A stretch of DNA of 64,000 nucleotides from Candidatus Parcubacteria bacterium (GTDB lineage: Bacteria; Patescibacteriota; Minisyncoccia; Phycocordibacterales; CAIZLB01), in NCBI GenBank assembly GCA_039795775.1, contig JBDKLC010000005.1, positions 312,638 to 376,637 on the forward strand, in the 5' to 3' direction. The notes under the pieces were generated by a model. That model was not told the DNA's origin, made no database searches, and was given only the letters and a program-made list of their open reading frames with translations. Position 1 is the stretch's first letter. The number at the start of each line of letters is the position of its first letter. Positions 5,733-60,250 of this stretch are shown here, one piece after another. A program made the position numbers and the translations under genes.

Positions 5733-6798
5733 CGCCTATGCACTTCGAACCACTGTAGATAACTATAGATTGTCCTGGTGTAAGGGCCGTCTGCGGTTGA
5801 TCAAAAGAAACTGAATATTGTCCGCTGTTTCCTTTTGAAATACGACATGTTTGTTTTTGCTGTCTGTATCGCGATCGAGCTTCATATGATTTTGTAAGGT
5901 CTGGTTCAGTAATAGTCCAATTTACAGATGTAAGTTCAACTGTTTTTGGCATATAATCTCCTTTTTTAAAAATATCTTGTGGCACTACCGTAATTATGTT
6001 TTTTTCGAGGTCTTTTGCAACAATATAATGAGGTGTGTCATCTGGTCGAGTGATTGTCAGTCGGAAACCATGTCGTTCACCAATTGTATACAAGAGTGAA
6101 CCGTCATGTTCGCCTATGATTGCTCCATGTGCATCAAGTACGGCCCCCTTTTCTGTTTGTATATATTCCTTTAAGAACTCCTTCATATCTACATGCCCGA
6201 GGAAGCAGATTCCCTGACTGTCTTTTTTATCAAATACTGGCAACTTATATTTCTCAGCAAGTTTTCGAACCTCAGGCTTTAGCAAGTGACCAATTGGGAA
6301 CAATGTGTGTTTGAGGTCCTTCTGATTGAGGGTCCATAAGAAATAGCTTTGATCTTTGTTAGGATCTTTTCCTTCGTGCATTTCACTTGCTTCTAGCGTC
6401 ACTATATTTTGAGCATAGTGACCTGTAGCGATAAAATCCGCACCTTGTTTCAGTGCCTCATCAAGAAACGAGCCGAATTTAATCTGCCGATTACACATCA
6501 CATCTGGGTTAGGAGTTCGCCCAAGCTTGTATTCGTTGATCATATAGTCCACTACGTCTTTTTTGTATCGTTCTGCAAAATCAAACGTAAGAAATGTAAT
6601 ATCAAGAGCCGCTGCTACGCGCATTGCATCTCGTCGTTCATCTTTCCATGTGCATTCGCCATTTTCTGGCTGCCATACTTTTATAAAAACACCTGTCACA
6701 TCGTAGCCTGCCAATTTCAAAAGAAGTGCTGATACAGAAGAATCAACACCGCCAGACATACCAACAAATACTTTAGGTTTTTTTGAAATACTCTTCAT
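5716..6798 (-). CDS. mnmA: tRNA-specific 2-thiouridylase MnmA
   Basis: PP-loop SGGVDSS at the N-terminus, MnmA-length protein, conserved catalytic-Cys context. Confidence 0.9.
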   Translation of the reverse strand: MKSISKKPKVFVGMSGGVDSSVSALLLKLAGYDVTGVFIKVWQPENGECTWKDERRDAMRVAAALDITFLTFDFAERYKKDVVDYMINEYKLGRTPNPDVMCNRQIKFGSFLDEALKQGADFIATGHYAQNIVTLEASEMHEGKDPNKDQSYFLWTLNQKDLKHTLFPIGHLLKPEVRKLAEKYKLPVFDKKDSQGICFLGHVDMKEFLKEYIQTEKGAVLDAHGAIIGEHDGSLLYTIGERHGFRLTITRPDDTPHYIVAKDLEKNIITVVPQDIFKKGDYMPKTVELTSVNWTITEPDLTKSYEARSRYRQQKQTCRISKGNSGQYSVSFDQPQTALTPGQSIVIYSGSKCIGGGILS

Positions 6799-6828
6799 AG
6801 AAGATATGCCAGACTGAGCCTATGAAAT

Positions 6829-7821
6829 TTACTTTAGATACTTATTCTTAAGGCGTACATGCTCATCATGAGTCTTAGCAAAATGAGTTATACCATCTTT
6901 ATCCGAAAGAAAGAAGAGGTAGTCGTTTGGAATGGGGCGAAGTGCAGCCTCGATACTTTGAATTCCTGGATTTGAAATCGGTGTTGGAGGAAGACCTTTA
7001 TTTGTGTAGGTGTTATAAGGTGAATTCACTTTGAGGTCATTTAGTGTAAGTTGAGCCGATGTTTTTCCGTTTACATATGTAAATGTGCTATCTACCTGAA
7101 GCGGCATTCCAATTTCTATTCTTCGCCACAAAAGATCTGCAACCATTTTTCTGTCTTGTTCTGTTTGTACCTCACCTTCTAGGATTGAAGCCATAATAAT
7201 AATATCTTTCATACTATGCGATGAACTAGCAATTTCCTGCTCATACGGCTTCAATTGCTTTTTAAAAATACTGCCCATCATAGTAATAATCATTTCAGAC
7301 GATGCTTTGGGCGGAAAGAAATACGTATTTGGAAAGAGATATCCTTCTTTACCCTGTATTGATACTAAGAATGAATCTCGATCAATATCTGGGAACTTCT
7401 CATGGATAACGTCGGCTATCTTAAATACATTTGTACCTTCAGGAATTGTGACTTTTGTTGGAATATATCCATAATCACCATTCACCACACGTCGGGCAAT
7501 ACGAATGACATTCTGAGGTTTATTAAATTCATACATTCCTGCTGATATTTTGTGTTCACCACCGAGGAGAATAATTGCACTTCGAAGTACGATGCTAGAT
7601 TTCACAACCCCTCTGTCTCTCAGTTCATTAGCAATACTAGTAAGACTTTGTCCTGATTCGATTTGGACTGTTGTGCCGGCCACAAAGTTAAATGGAGCAG
7701 CAAATACAAATGTATAAATAATAGAAGCAAATGTAATGATGACGAACGTGAAAACACTAATGAACGCCACTAGTAAGAAACTTAAAGATTTTTTCTTTTT
7801 AGGGATATAGAGATCGTCCAT
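6829..7821 (-). CDS. mltG: Endolytic murein transglycosylase MltG/YceG family
   Basis: N-terminal TM helix and a YceG-like domain with the GLPPTPISNP motif. Start moved to the internal Met (MDDLY) to avoid overlap with the upstream gene. Confidence 0.8.
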   Translation of the reverse strand: MDDLYIPKKKKSLSFLLVAFISVFTFVIITFASIIYTFVFAAPFNFVAGTTVQIESGQSLTSIANELRDRGVVKSSIVLRSAIILLGGEHKISAGMYEFNKPQNVIRIARRVVNGDYGYIPTKVTIPEGTNVFKIADVIHEKFPDIDRDSFLVSIQGKEGYLFPNTYFFPPKASSEMIITMMGSIFKKQLKPYEQEIASSSHSMKDIIIMASILEGEVQTEQDRKMVADLLWRRIEIGMPLQVDSTFTYVNGKTSAQLTLNDLKVNSPYNTYTNKGLPPTPISNPGIQSIEAALRPIPNDYLFFLSDKDGITHFAKTHDEHVRLKNKYLK

Positions 7822-7828
7822 GTAGTGA

Positions 7829-9082
7829 TTAGATAGGTAGGTTTGCTGGAGGTTCTGACTTCTTTGCCTGTACTCGACTGAGAGTTGGAGTTCGAGAGAC
7901 ATCGCCTGGGAAGTGGTAAATAGTAGCTAATTCTTCAATATTCATCACAAATGGATCTGATTTGTAACCAACTGGAATATACTCAGCCACAAAGAATGCT
8001 CGTGCCTTATACTTATCAAACAATTCTTTTTTCATCTTTTGAACCTTCTTGCCTGATCGATCTTGCCATGGATATTTTACGCCTGGAGCTTTATCTGGCT
8101 TAAAGCCGTTGAGATTTGAACTATTGTACTGTCGGAATGCACCTGTAAGTCCAGAGATCATAGAAGACCGATATGCATCTTTTCGCGCAGCATAAATACT
8201 TCGAATACCGCAATCGAATGGTGTCTTCGCCAAACTTTTTTCGATAGCATCCACAGCGTCCTTTTCTCCCTTACTGAGCTGCATTGTATTTGGATTGACT
8301 GGTTTATCTGCTTTAACCTCAACATCTCGCTTCATTCGCTTTTTGAGGTCTTCTGCAGCATCATGTTTCCAGTCTACGAGTTCCCCCCACTTGCCACCAG
8401 GTTTCTGTTTGTGCTTTACATGAGCTCTCACACAAATCTGAATCCATGCTTGCTCGCCTGGTTTGAGAGAACCAAGAAATTCAATCAATGTCGTGATAGG
8501 GTCGATTTTTACTTCTTCTTTTGGATCTTTGTCGAGACCGTAATCTACGTATGTCTTGATAGGAAGATGTGATGGGCCCGTCTTTATAAATTCACAGCCC
8601 CAAAAATCATACTTTTCAGCATTAAATTCAATAGCGTTTGTATAGTCTGCAACTTCTGTTATTTCAATATCAGGAAACTGACCATAGAGCTGAGTTTCAA
8701 TCATGTCTTTAAACTTGTCTCGAGTCCAAATGAAAAATCGAACCACTCCGTCTATAGAAGTAACTTCAAGTGAAAACCATGGTCGAGTAGACCCATTCCA
8801 GTATTTATCAAACCAGTTACCTTCACCTCCTGTCTGATAGAGCGATGTCATGAAGAGCTCCATGGCAAGTGGAGATTTGGTGATACCACGAGGGATCTTG
8901 AGTTCGAGTACTTTATACTTTTGCGCAGCGAAGAATGTTGCACGCACAAAGGCCACCCAGTTTTTCCAAAATGATCTGAGTAATAAGTACGGAAATAAGA
9001 GTACGATAAAGAGCAGCACAAATTGAAATGCTGAGAATATGATAGGTCCAATTGCTTCTCGAAATGTAATAGCTGCGTCCAC
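7829..9082 (-). CDS. Hypothetical membrane-anchored protein (417 aa)
   Basis: Long ORF with an N-terminal hydrophobic segment and no recognisable catalytic motifs. Confidence 0.55.
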   Translation of the reverse strand: MDAAITFREAIGPIIFSAFQFVLLFIVLLFPYLLLRSFWKNWVAFVRATFFAAQKYKVLELKIPRGITKSPLAMELFMTSLYQTGGEGNWFDKYWNGSTRPWFSLEVTSIDGVVRFFIWTRDKFKDMIETQLYGQFPDIEITEVADYTNAIEFNAEKYDFWGCEFIKTGPSHLPIKTYVDYGLDKDPKEEVKIDPITTLIEFLGSLKPGEQAWIQICVRAHVKHKQKPGGKWGELVDWKHDAAEDLKKRMKRDVEVKADKPVNPNTMQLSKGEKDAVDAIEKSLAKTPFDCGIRSIYAARKDAYRSSMISGLTGAFRQYNSSNLNGFKPDKAPGVKYPWQDRSGKKVQKMKKELFDKYKARAFFVAEYIPVGYKSDPFVMNIEELATIYHFPGDVSRTPTLSRVQAKKSEPPANLPI

Positions 9083-33658: not shown

Positions 33659-33776
33659 CAACCTGTGCTTGCAACATAAAGAACTACTGGAGTGTAGTTA
33701 TACAACTTTTTGTAAATAAGTCAACGCAGGTATTCACTGCTGCTTTATCATCCGCAGTCTCCTATCAAATAAAATA

Positions 33777-33809
33777 ACAGCCCCCGAAATGGAGGCTGTT
33801 CTTTTATTT
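33777..33809. terminator. Hairpin + T-run (AACAGCC/GGCTGTT), forming with the next 19 nt a diverged copy of the tRNA-Ala 3' end-plus-terminator unit
   Basis: 7-bp stem with an 11-nt loop, followed by CTTTTATTTG and then the 19-nt tRNA 3'-end copy. Confidence 0.5.
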
Positions 33810-33821
33810 GTGGACCCTACA

Positions 33822-33925
33822 GGATTCGGTCACAGGTCTCGCCGACATGCGGCTCGCCCGCGACCCCGCCTCCCTCGTCTCGGTTCGCCTTGCTCACAAC
33901 GAGACTTCAGTCCGGCTTTCTCATC
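33822..33925. repeat. GC-rich ~100-nt tRNA-associated structured element, copy 1 (candidate ncRNA or mini-insertion)
   Basis: Shares a 52-nt identical 5' module and a 19-nt 3' module with the copy at 60009..60109. The variable centre forms a hairpin in both copies. Flanked by a 19-nt direct repeat of the tRNA-Ala 3' end. Confidence 0.6.
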
Positions 33926-33943
33926 AAGTAGCTCAGGAAATAG

Positions 33944-33980
33944 AAAACACCAGATATATCGTCTGGTGTTTTCTATTTCT
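33944..33980. terminator. Bidirectional intrinsic terminator between element copy 1 and tRNA-Ala
   Basis: 8-bp stem ACACCAGA/TCTGGTGT flanked by an A-run and a T-run. Confidence 0.65.
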
Positions 33981-33981
33981 G

Positions 33982-34054
33982 TGGACCCTACAGGATTCGA
34001 ACCTGCCACCCCCTCAGTGCAAATGAGGTGCTCTACCAAATGAGCTAAGGGCCC
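33982..34054 (-). tRNA. tRNA-Ala (anticodon TGC)
   Basis: Manual cloverleaf: acceptor GGGCCCT/AGGGTCC with the G3:U70 Ala identity pair, D arm GCTC...GAGC, anticodon loop TTTGCAC, T-loop TTCGAAT. CCA is not encoded. Confidence 0.9.
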
Positions 34055-34512
34055 GTTTTGTTGTGAGAATATAATAGCCTAAATTTTTAAAATAGCCAAG
34101 CCCTGCCCTCTTTCTATCCACAGGCAACACATAAAGGCGACATCTGAGAAATGAAAAAGCCATCCTGTGTGGATGACCTTGTGTAAAAAATTTTAGACGG
34201 AGTCTAAAGAGTGGGCCGAAGCCCACAGAACATATACTGACGACTCTGAGGTGGCCAAGGACATTCGGTGGCACTGGTACACGAATATTGACGAGAGCTG
34301 TTTTGCTCAGTGGCCTACATTGCGGCCTAGCCATGTATGATTCGAGCGATCGGTTCGCAACGCTTTGACGGGCAAGCGCTAAACATCGTTGGTCTCATAG
34401 CGTCCGAGAGACCTCATACACCTTGGCCACCTTCTCTAGTCATTAGTGGCCTGTCCAACACTTTACTACATTTATCTAAAAAATCAACCCATTTACACTG
34501 ACATACTCTGAC

Positions 34513-56164: not shown

Positions 56165-56247
56165 GCCGTGGTGGCGGAATGGTAGACGCAATCGACTCAA
56201 AATCGATCGGGGGCAACCCCGTGAGAGTTCAACTCTCTCCCGCGGCA
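56165..56247 (+). tRNA. tRNA-Leu (anticodon CAA), long variable arm
   Basis: Manual fold: acceptor GCCGTGG/CCGCGGC, anticodon stem ATCGA/TCGAT with loop CTCAAAA, variable arm CGGGGGCAACCCCGTG, T-loop TTCAACT. Confidence 0.85.
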
Positions 56248-56319
56248 CACATACAAAAGATCTATATAGACTTGCGAAACTTGCCCTTTGGGGCTTTTTT
56301 CGTATAGTAAAAGCACAAC

Positions 56320-59430: not shown

Positions 59431-59500
59431 GTATATGTGTCGTGAATCTGAATGGGATATCGCGCTTCGCCGTTTAATTTATGTAATTAATCGTATCACA

Positions 59501-59540
59501 GAAGCCGGCTCACTGCGCGACTGCGTCCGGCTTTCTCGTC
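59501..59540. repeat. Partial (3' module) copy of the tRNA-associated GC-rich element
   Basis: CGACTGCGTCCGGCTTTCTCGTC matches the element 3' module CGACTGCAGTCCGGCTTTCTCATC and is preceded by a hairpin. It holds the same position relative to the terminator and tRNA-Trp as the other two copies. Confidence 0.5.
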
Positions 59541-59556
59541 CATCGTATAGAACCGT

Positions 59557-59596
59557 CAATATAAAAGACCGCAGTGATAAGCGGTCTTTTATATTG
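59557..59596. terminator. Bidirectional intrinsic terminator / 40-bp palindrome downstream of tRNA-Trp
   Basis: CAATATAAAAGACCGC-AGTGATAA-GCGGTCTTTTATATTG. Confidence 0.7.
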
Positions 59597-59599
59597 ATG

Positions 59600-59671
59600 C
59601 GGGCCCACCAGGACTCGAACCTGGAACTGCGGTTTTGGAGACCGTCGTTTTACCATTGAAACTATAAGCCC
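59600..59671 (-). tRNA. tRNA-Trp (anticodon CCA)
   Basis: Manual fold: acceptor GGGCTTA/TGGGCCC (two G:U pairs), D arm GTTT...AAAC, anticodon loop CTCCAAA, T arm CCAGG-TTCGAGT-CCTGG. 72 nt. Confidence 0.85.
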
Positions 59672-59796: not shown

Positions 59797-59949
59797 TTAT
59801 TTCTTAGCTTCTGTGAAAACTACTCGCTTTCGAAGCTTCTTACTGTATTTCTTGAGAGCAATCTTAGGATTTTTCTTCTTATTCTTAGTAGTATAAAGCT
59901 CCTCTCCTGTCTGCTTGTTTCTCAATTTGATTAATCGGTCTTGTGACAT
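59797..59949 (-). CDS. rpmG: 50S ribosomal protein L33
   Basis: A 50-aa ORF below the track threshold. MSQDRLIKLRNKQTGEELYTTKNKKKNPKIALKKYSKKLRKRVVFTEAKK fits the L33 pattern (YTT.KNK...KL.LKK...R.H/R..F.E.K). Classic tRNA-Tyr/rpmG/tRNA-Trp neighbourhood. Confidence 0.8.
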   Translation of the reverse strand: MSQDRLIKLRNKQTGEELYTTKNKKKNPKIALKKYSKKLRKRVVFTEAKK

Positions 59950-59988: not shown

Positions 59989-60008
59989 AGCAAACGCCCA
60001 AATATTGG

Positions 60009-60109
60009 GGATTCGGTCACAGGTCTCGCCGACATGCGGCTCGCCCGCGACCCCGCCTCCTTTGTCGCCATCGCAAGCGATATGGCGACTGCAGTCCGGC
60101 TTTCTCATC
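60009..60109. repeat. GC-rich ~100-nt tRNA-associated structured element, copy 2
   Basis: Identical to copy 1 over GGATTCGGTCACAGGTCTCGCCGACATGCGGCTCGCCCGCGACCCCGCCTCC and over CAGTCCGGCTTTCTCATC. The central hairpin has a different sequence (GTCGCCAT...ATGGCGAC) but the same geometry. Confidence 0.6.
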
Positions 60110-60127
60110 TACCCCATCATTGGAAAT

Positions 60128-60159
60128 AAAAAATACCCCTCAAATGAGGGGTATTTTTT
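60128..60159. terminator. Bidirectional intrinsic terminator between element copy 2 and tRNA-Tyr
   Basis: AAAAAATACCCCTC-AAAT-GAGGGGTATTTTTT. Confidence 0.75.
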
Positions 60160-60166
60160 ATTTCTG

Positions 60167-60250
60167 TGCGTGGGGAGGGATTCGAACCCCCGTAGCCCAA
60201 TGGGCGATAGATTTACAGTCTACTGCGATTGACCACTCCGCCACCCACGC
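60167..60250 (-). tRNA. tRNA-Tyr (anticodon GTA), long variable arm
   Basis: Manual fold: acceptor GCGTGGG/CCCACGC, D arm GCGG..TCGC, anticodon stem GTAGA/TCTAT with loop CTGTAAA, long variable arm, T arm GGGGG-TTCGAAT-CCCTC. Confidence 0.85.

Follow-up and report, generated by a model that had tools for sequence, protein, structure and literature searches.

A structured core in the T-loop of partial tRNA duplicates behind tRNA genes of Candidate Phyla Radiation bacteria

We analysed a 64,000-nucleotide stretch of a Candidatus Parcubacteria genome (contig JBDKLC010000005.1, positions 312,638 to 376,637; hereafter the window, numbered from its first letter), in which a GC-rich element of about 100 nucleotides recurs beside tRNA genes. 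The evidence is strong that this element belongs to a widespread family of the Candidate Phyla Radiation (CPR), in which a structured core occupies the T-loop of a partial tRNA duplicate located behind the parent tRNA gene. Comparison of the window with related loci establishes the anatomy of these units, the derivation of their flanks from the local tRNA, covariation of an RNA type, a distribution over the CPR, and differences in presence and absence between relatives. The original prediction, made from the window, had described a module standing on its own next to tRNA genes. The association is genuine and extends to other genomes (15 of 37 tRNA loci), but it arises because the element sits inside a partial duplicate of the adjacent tRNA, in its T-loop.

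The window contains two full copies of the core (33826-33925 and 60013-60109) and a degenerate one (59458-59540), each separated by a single A-tract/T-tract hairpin from the 3’ end of the minus-strand tRNA gene that it follows (tRNA-Ala, tRNA-Tyr and tRNA-Trp, respectively), a placement that had been predicted and that ARAGORN and Rfam confirm. The 52-nucleotide block reported as common to the full copies, GGATTCGGTCACAGG…CCGCCTCC, is present at exactly two sites (33822-33873 and 60009-60060) with 0 mismatches, where 0 occurrences are expected by chance, and the shared plus-strand 3’ module, CAGTCCGGCTTTCTC, is found exactly at 33908 and 60092 and with 2 mismatches at 59523. Folds and alignment also agree with the proposal that the centre differs between the two copies and forms a hairpin in both. 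The third copy exists as well, but the assigned interval (59501..59540) was too short, and the copy is degenerate (12 bits, E = 0.64). Similarly, the element is GC-rich, at values of ~65% for the core against ~41% for the window background, compared with the earlier ~70% for the modules and ~43% for the genome. The fourth tRNA gene of the window, a tRNA-Leu on the plus strand (56165-56248; ARAGORN and Rfam), lacks a copy, and these four tRNAs are the only Rfam matches above the gathering threshold.

The unit behind tRNA-Ala illustrates the arrangement. Its components, given in 5’ to 3’ order with the evidence in brackets, lie on the minus strand; R1 denotes the covariance model of the main family, and R2 a second covariance model built from six cores of divergent relatives.

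34099-34071, minus strand: promoter-like site of tRNA-Ala (sequence scan)
33981..34054, minus strand: intact tRNA-Ala(TGC), before the partial duplicate of copy 1, CCA not encoded (ARAGORN; Rfam tRNA 64.9 bits)
33937..33979, minus strand: 18-bp A-tract/T-tract terminator-type hairpin between tRNA-Ala and copy 1 (sequence; same style in every related locus)
33926..33936, minus strand: left flank of copy 1, CUGAGCUACUU, T-arm 5’-side remnant (fold; left flanks elsewhere match the local T-stem 5’ strand)
33826..33925, minus strand: core of copy 1 (R1 117.3 bits, E = 5e-24; consensus structure and covariation)
33809..33825, minus strand: tail of copy 1, AUCCUGUAGGGUCCACA, equal to tRNA-Ala from position 59 to the discriminator, plus CA (exact 18-mer)
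33776..33800, minus strand: intrinsic-terminator-like hairpin closing the copy 1 unit (terminator scan)

Together with the core-terminal CGA, the tail forms a 20-nucleotide exact direct repeat of the end of the upstream tRNA gene (33809-33828 = 33980-33999), and an exact 18-mer occurs at 33811-33828 and 33982-33999 only (0.01 expected). Read 5’ to 3’, the core is composed of GAUGAGAAAGCCGGA, a long irregular helix with a variable hairpin at its tip, the invariant hairpin GGUCGCGGGCGAGCCGCAUGUCGGCGAGACCUGUGACC and a terminal GA, and the minus-strand end of the copy, …CCUGUGACCGA, runs directly on into the tail. The left flank and the core GAU pair with the tail (CUAC/GUAG and GAU/AUC) in a weak duplex of -5.4 kcal/mol.

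Related loci, referred to below by handles (L001 and so on), were retrieved by several routes. An exact 22-mer of the core found, in a species-level genome collection, a metagenome-assembled genome (MAG; L004), a Saccharibacteria MAG (L005) and a Parcubacteria MAG (L006), and a 24-mer search added the metagenome contigs L008 and L009; two further matches (L003, Cystobacter, and L007, Microlunatus) were discarded as chance matches within GC-rich sequence, with no similarity around them. The loci found in this manner share a constant order of tRNA, hairpin, core and a copy of the 3’ end of their own tRNA (Trp, Ala, Ile and Trp). R1 detected a shorter variant behind the tRNA-Ser of L006 (57.6 bits; tail one base off the tRNA), and the main-family core thus occurs with tRNA-Ala, -Tyr, -Trp, -Ile and -Ser. 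Additional loci, collected via homologues of ribosomal protein L33 and Ddl (the Ddl proteins of the window and L005 are 78% identical, and both genomes have the Ddl-tRNA-Ala neighbourhood in common), hold divergent relatives that are invisible to R1. R2 finds an independent copy behind the tRNA-Leu of L017 (39.7 bits), and a third, AT-rich subfamily lies behind tRNA-Thr (L011) and tRNA-Tyr (L025/L026). A terminator-type hairpin follows the tRNA in every related locus.

Every distinct tRNA locus collected (37) was scanned for a second copy of the last 15-16 nucleotides of the tRNA with at most 3 mismatches. Against a background of 4-8 mismatches, a duplicate is present at 15 of the 37. Besides copy 1, repeats of the tRNA 3’ end are seen in L017 (Tyr, Trp and Leu), L025/L026 (Tyr, Trp and Leu), L004, L008 and L033 (Trp), L005 (Ala), L006 (Ile and Ser) and L011 (Thr). 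In a locus-wide scan (at most 2 mismatches in 16 nucleotides) all duplicates were on the same strand as the tRNA with a repeat period of 139-185 nucleotides, and the scanned loci contained no upstream, opposite-strand or distant (kilobase-scale) duplicates and none beyond 185 nucleotides. On the question of whether copies always adjoin a tRNA gene, which the original prediction had raised, all significant matches of R1 (~350 kb searched) and R2 (293 kb) are at tRNA-adjacent sites only.

Across subfamilies, the sequences on either side of the core are specific to the local tRNA. The right flank begins at about position 59-61 of the tRNA and ends at the discriminator, and the left flank is similar to the 5’ strand of the local T-stem and continues with a T-loop-like UUCGAA, AUCGAAC or UGAGAAAG (T-stem and element flank are, for instance, CGAGG/CGAGAG, CUUGG/GUUGG, GCGGG/GCGAG, GGGGG/UGGGG and GGGGG/GGAGGA). 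At a minimum, the unit comprises the 5’ and 3’ strands of the T-stem, the two halves of the T-loop, the 3’ strand of the acceptor stem and the discriminator, with a structured core of ~90-110 nucleotides in place of the T-loop. The element behind the tRNA-Tyr of L017 also possesses a 7-bp mimic of the acceptor 5’ strand (GCGCUGG) and the end of the variable arm, giving a duplex of -24.2 kcal/mol; it is clearly a copy of tRNA-Tyr without the D and anticodon arms that holds the core in its T-loop. The pairing of flanks is stronger for cognate than for non-cognate combinations (-12.0 versus -8.6 kcal/mol, permutation p ~0.005). A closing helix in every copy was considered and rejected: the pairing is significant overall, yet weak in window copy 1, L005, L006-Ser and L011. 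The tails of L005 and L025-Leu are decaying.

As a side observation on the tRNA 3’ ends, the window tRNA genes do not encode CCA and have CA after the discriminator, CCA is encoded in orthologues at empty sites (L010 Trp, 7835-7909; L041 Ala, 7319-7394; and L044 Ala), and the main-family tails of L004 and L006-Ile carry a CCA that their tRNA genes lack. We rejected the tail CCA as proof of a mature-tRNA intermediate, given that only 2-3 of ~14 tails have it. A retroviral-type primer-binding site or an m1A58 reverse-transcription stop, which the 18-nucleotide tail (positions 59-76) would fit in L004 and L006-Ile, was likewise discarded, given the junction at ~60/61 in the second subfamily and the lack of CCA in most tails.

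The other two units of the window have the same layout, again on the minus strand.

60332-60304, minus strand: promoter-like site of tRNA-Tyr (sequence scan)
60166..60250, minus strand: intact tRNA-Tyr(GTA) upstream of copy 2 (ARAGORN, Rfam)
60123..60164, minus strand: A-tract/T-tract hairpin between tRNA-Tyr and copy 2 (sequence)
60110..60122, minus strand: left flank of copy 2, CAAUGAUGGGGUA (fold)
60013..60109, minus strand: core of copy 2, different central-hairpin variant (R1 112.1 bits, E = 7e-23)
59997..60012, minus strand: right flank of copy 2, AUCCCCAAUAUUUGGG, small hairpin just upstream of rpmG (59797-59949) (sequence, fold)
59599..59671, minus strand: intact tRNA-Trp(CCA) upstream of copy 3 (ARAGORN, Rfam)
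59561..59594, minus strand: A/T-tract hairpin after tRNA-Trp (sequence)
59458..59540, minus strand: degenerate copy 3 (R1 12.2 bits, E = 0.64; same place relative to tRNA and hairpin)

In copy 2, UGGGG in the left flank is close to GGGGG, the 5’ strand of the tRNA-Tyr T-stem, and forms pairs with CCCCA in the right flank, and the cognate duplex (-13.2 kcal/mol) is joint best among 9 tails. Only AUCCC of its right flank still equals tRNA-Tyr, the acceptor part having been lost, and the systematic scan found no intact tRNA-Tyr duplicate at this copy (8 mismatches). Copy 3, which is identical in the metagenome contigs L001 and L002, retains GACGAGAAAGCCGGAC and a 3’ hairpin that has diverged and contains an AT-rich insertion, and it has neither a central hairpin nor a recognisable tail. 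No promoter of the element’s own was found at the window copies. The window units contain no credible open reading frame (ORF), the only candidates overlapping the folded core, the hairpin and the tRNAs themselves, and Pfam gave no match for the 4 minus-strand ORFs directly downstream of copy 1 or for 2 near copy 3.

Two features of the surroundings of copy 1 deserve mention. The GC content rises to 0.44-0.50 between 31000 and 33600, compared with ~0.40 nearby, and this segment may be a foreign island beside the tRNA-Ala unit. Between Ddl and tRNA-Ala, 34055-34512 is a stretch of ~450 nucleotides without a credible ORF and with a terminator (34180-34156) at its end, for which Rfam returned no match at E up to 0.1; L046 has a similarly long ORF-free stretch between the same two genes, likewise closed by a terminator hairpin.

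The folding of the element favours an RNA read in the sense of the tRNA. On the tRNA-sense (minus) strand, copies 1 and 2 fold with -46.1 and -50.8 kcal/mol, compared with -32.8 and -39.8 kcal/mol on the plus strand, and the 3’ hairpin has G-U pairs in which, as judged from a seven-sequence alignment, the sole changes are G-U to A-U and C-G to U-G. Since these one-sided changes preserve pairing on the tRNA-sense strand alone, the minus-strand reading replaces the plus-strand one adopted originally. That the element is structured, as predicted, is well supported: 98.4% of the cells of the main-family alignment are paired, 8 pairs have changed on both sides, and 0 of 500 shuffles reach the observed score. 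This covariation resides in the central helices, with a nearly invariant 3’ module, and the 52-nucleotide module has only 2 variable positions across at least 3 lineages. In the R2 subfamily, 20 of 32 pairs show compensatory changes and the RNAs have fold z-scores of -4.6 to -6.4 relative to shuffled sequence. A T-loop-like pentamer (UGAGA, UUCGA or AUCGA) is kept at the 5’ junction. Core and tRNA-derived flanks together would form a three-way junction, consisting of a closing helix made from both flanks and two long hairpins, and both covariance models support such a predicted RNA, read on the tRNA-sense strand.

The family is without a counterpart among the collections we searched. In E-value mode, all Rfam matches touching the element were far below the family thresholds, which extends the absence of tmRNA, RNase P, signal recognition particle and 6S features, noted earlier, to every Rfam family. 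ARAGORN found no tmRNA, and the element is 100 nucleotides long, multi-copy and without a proper T-loop or tag frame. The group I intron model (RF00028) and the ribozyme families gave no match, and the insert lies in the T-loop of a tRNA copy that is itself incomplete. Two gapped patterns had no match in viral contigs, a plasmid search was equally negative, and a phage search produced one marginal chance match in a Gordonia phage of high GC content. The element has no linked protein gene; there is no ORF inside the unit, and the neighbours vary between loci. A literature search found no description of the element; the related work concerns group I introns in the tRNAs of Patescibacteria, which lie in the anticodon loop (35/36) and match RF00028 (PMC13011429).

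When compared with known systems, the element shares single features with several of them and lacks a defining feature of those families for which a test was made. Like tRNA-targeting integrative elements and prophages, it has a duplicated segment from T-loop to 3’ end, an intact tRNA on one side, filled and empty sites, and the direct repeat expected of them (20 nucleotides, 33809-33828 and 33980-33999; 15 of 37 loci). Unlike them, it measures only 139-185 bp, has no recombinase gene between the repeats, places the same core behind many tRNA species, has a left flank that is also tRNA-derived, and contains a covarying structured RNA as its interior. Scars of prophage attachment (att) sites with distant partners were rejected, there being no repeat beyond 185 nucleotides. 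Archaea have non-canonical tRNA introns in the T-loop, for which transposition among tRNAs has been proposed in the Thermoproteales, and these resemble the present family in having related inserts at T-loop positions (~58/59) of several tRNA species; here, however, the host is bacterial, the interrupted copy has neither a D arm nor an anticodon arm and is not the working gene, and an intact tRNA lies upstream. The group I introns of Patescibacteria tRNAs have host group and tRNA target in common with the element, and homing-endonuclease genes occur near the same tRNAs in relatives, but the introns are larger, reside in the anticodon loop and match RF00028, whereas the element core matches no Rfam family (PMC13011429).

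The remaining comparisons also show both common and differing features. Other tRNA-like RNAs (the tmRNA domain, viral tRNA-like structures, mascRNA, YrlA) also combine a helix of the acceptor/T-stem type with a non-tRNA body and lack an anticodon arm. The body of the element lies in the T-loop, though, a genome holds several copies, each of which mimics its own neighbouring tRNA, a tag reading frame is missing, and neither ARAGORN nor Rfam gives a match. The omega RNA of IS200/IS605 TnpB and its miniature derivatives similarly has a structured scaffold with a fixed boundary (…GACCGA) followed by 16-18 nucleotides from the insertion site, but no locus examined has tnpA or tnpB, the 3’ segment of the element equals a neighbouring gene that stays intact, and outside the T-loop there is no pattern of subterminal hairpin and target tetranucleotide. 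BOX, REP/BIME and Correia repeats are short, multi-copy and modular too, with conserved ends and a variable middle; they are dispersed, not tRNA-specific and not made of the sequence of a target gene. A miniature inverted-repeat transposable element (MITE) or insertion sequence (IS)-type transposon was rejected because the sole inverted repeat is the target-derived T-stem pair and the duplicated segment (16-24 nucleotides) has a subfamily-dependent left limit, and dispersal of this type because all significant R1 and R2 matches adjoin tRNAs; the module maps to no known IS or MITE end. Also discarded were a hammerhead ribozyme (CUGAUGAG in L005 only, with no stem II before GAAA), a box C/D RNA (L005 and L006 do not conserve UGAUGA and CUGA), a simple target-site duplication, which leaves the tRNA-specific left flank unexplained, and tandem duplication followed by insertion, which needs too many coincidences.

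The distribution of cores among genomes provides a view of their history. On sequence comparison, core similarity appears to disagree with host relatedness: between the window and L005, whose Ddl proteins are 78% identical, the orthologous tRNA-Ala cores share 82% identity and differ in their central hairpins, and the window core is 93% identical to the tRNA-Ile copy of the Parcubacteria MAG L006. The tRNA-Trp genes of L017 and L026 are very different, yet the cores behind them are closely similar and each has flanks that match its own tRNA. The tRNA-Leu(CAA) site holds different core subfamilies in related genomes. Filled and empty sites are found in relatives. L017 is filled and L018 empty, with the same L33 protein in both and an empty site made up of the tRNA and the tail-side flank; at the Ddl-tRNA-Ala locus, the element is present in the window and L005 and absent from L040, L041 and L045, and L044 carries a serine-recombinase element there. 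The hairpins that bracket the unit are homologous in L006-Ser and L017-Trp. The metagenome contigs L001 and L002 stop at or within the element, as expected for a repeat. As a separate observation, many of the contigs L013-L016, L019-L024 and L046 stop ~60-260 nucleotides after rpmG or in the T-arm of a tRNA, which suggests repeat-induced assembly breaks at these units. We also observed that tRNA-Leu(CAA) and its element in L017 (11345-11605) are inverted relative to L018 (3861-3943), L025 and L026.

Because core similarity is incongruent, presence is patchy, several subfamilies occupy one site and some copies are decaying, we lean, at slightly less than an even chance, towards the core family being a non-autonomous, selfish, horizontally exchanged insertion element specialised on tRNA T-arms. 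Such an element would be mobile and exchanged both between genomes and between tRNA loci, it would be tolerated by the host because an intact tRNA and its terminator always remain upstream, and it would probably be transcribed by read-through from the tRNA promoter. Candidate insertion mechanisms include homing-type repair after a T-loop break, crossover of a small circle in the tRNA 3’ segment, and copying of a chimeric pre-tRNA. A number of observations weigh against a selfish insertion element. The loci examined have no linked transposase, integrase or reverse transcriptase, the collections searched have no free, circular or phage- or plasmid-borne copy, and no single known mechanism gives two flanks from the local tRNA together with an upstream tRNA that is always kept. 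The insertion boundary is inconsistent between cases: in the comparison of L005 with L040, the ancestral terminator has remained next to the tRNA (the post-tRNA terminator of L040 is homologous to the tRNA-side hairpin of L005, and the L005 insertion therefore lies beyond the resident terminator), whereas when L017 is compared with L018 it is the tail-side flank that the empty site matches. Although the modules of the two window copies are identical, their central hairpins, flanks and terminators bear no relation to one another, and there is consequently no sign of recent transposition in this genome. Finally, compensatory changes preserve the closing helix in copies whose tail has diverged from the tRNA, as in copy 2 (UGGGG/CCCCA) and L026-Leu (GAUG…GGAG pairs with CUCCAUC, versus GCCGGAG/CUCCGGC in the tRNA), and this compensation and the near-invariant 52-nucleotide module fit a selected host RNA equally well.

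The main rival is a tRNA-mimic RNA that benefits the host, that is, a non-coding RNA gene born of a tRNA duplication, which we regard as possible but rather unlikely. The acceptor/T-stem minihelix, being a copy of the neighbouring tRNA, would be recognised by RNase P, RNase Z and the CCA-adding enzyme, perhaps also by a synthetase or toxin, with the core replacing the elbow, and the RNA might act as a decoy, sponge or regulator. In addition to the compensated closing helices of copy 2 and L026-Leu, the nearly invariant 3’ module alongside covariation elsewhere in the core, the complete 7-bp acceptor mimic of L017-Tyr, the terminator after the copy 1 tail and the T-loop-like pentamer kept at the 5’ junction (UGAGA, UUCGA, AUCGA) are in line with this proposal. 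It accords poorly with the patchy occurrence among close relatives and the many empty loci, with the weak closing helix of several copies (including window copy 1 and L005), with the degenerate copy 3 and the decaying tails of L005 and L025-Leu, with the absence of an own promoter, and with core similarity that does not follow host relatedness.

Site-specific integration would read the tRNA 3’-end repeats as attL and attR of a miniature element mobilised by an integrase, a remnant that can be mobilised in cis, and the core as a recombinase-binding or folded single-strand site. T-loop-to-end direct repeats are the classic signature of integration at tRNAs, in relatives the same tRNAs are adjoined by genes for large serine recombinases (at tRNA-Leu in L030-L032 and at tRNA-Ala in L044), and recombination between the repeats would yield the L018 empty site. 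We nevertheless consider this scenario improbable, as no unit has a recombinase gene or a kilobase-scale repeat partner, and one core family is associated with at least 5 tRNA species, whereas classical elements carry one fixed tRNA segment and a classical integrase model would require a separate element per tRNA. Furthermore, the tRNA-derived left flank is not predicted by an att model, the G-U pairs and one-sided changes fit RNA or one specific DNA strand, and the resident terminator is on the tRNA side in L005 versus L040. Even less probable, in our estimation, is that the core is a relic of a T-loop intron of a once functional tRNA, an intron-less copy having arisen upstream and the interrupted copy decaying. 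The location of the core at ~positions 58/59-60/61 of the T-arm copy, the retention of the acceptor 5’ strand, variable-arm end and T-stem in the interrupted copy of L017-Tyr, and the presence of group I introns in the anticodon loop of CPR tRNA genes (PMC13011429) speak for an intron origin. However, the R1 and R2 matches include no full-length interrupted tRNA that lacks an intact copy upstream, neither the group I intron model nor any ribozyme family matches, the same improbable healing event would be needed at many loci, and the core modules are conserved instead of decaying.

Homing-endonuclease and recombinase genes are located at the same tRNAs in relatives. At 7500-7887 of L017, a 5’ tRNA-Tyr fragment with a GC hairpin in its D-loop is followed by a 70-residue GIY-YIG ORF and an intact tRNA-Tyr, an order that mirrors the 3’ arrangement of the element. 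LAGLIDADG-type ORFs end at or within tRNA-Tyr in L019-L021 (L019, ~6599-7457), and a LAGLIDADG fragment lies directly after tRNA-Leu(CAA) in L018 (3960-4229). Genes for large serine recombinases extend into the 3’ end of tRNA-Leu(CAA) in L030 (11401-13104; also L031 and L032) and of tRNA-Ala in L044 (7092-8641), and look like ordinary integrated elements at the same tRNAs. Judging from the homing-endonuclease genes and the partial 5’ copies of tRNAs, mobile DNA in these genomes may generally congregate at tRNA genes.

It is conceivable, if doubtful, that the family represents a class of CPR element not described before, namely a structured RNA, or a single strand of DNA in folded form, that inserts itself into the T-loop of a copied 3’ part of the neighbouring tRNA. 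The outcome would be a family of tRNA-specific mimics located after a large share of the tRNA genes, spread by an RNA-level or in-trans protein mechanism that builds both flanks from the local tRNA, and these mimics may be processed or charged in the manner of tRNAs. The R1 and R2 models make a genome-wide survey straightforward. The element causes assembly breaks beside tRNA genes and could mislead annotation into calls of tRNA fragments or att sites. Present at ~40% of the tRNA loci sampled and in several CPR lineages, it has no Rfam family. If mobile, it would represent a new route by which tRNA genes are colonised without being destroyed, in extremely reduced genomes; if a host RNA, it would amount to a set of tRNA-specific mimics with a possible part in tRNA processing, defence or host-symbiont conflict.

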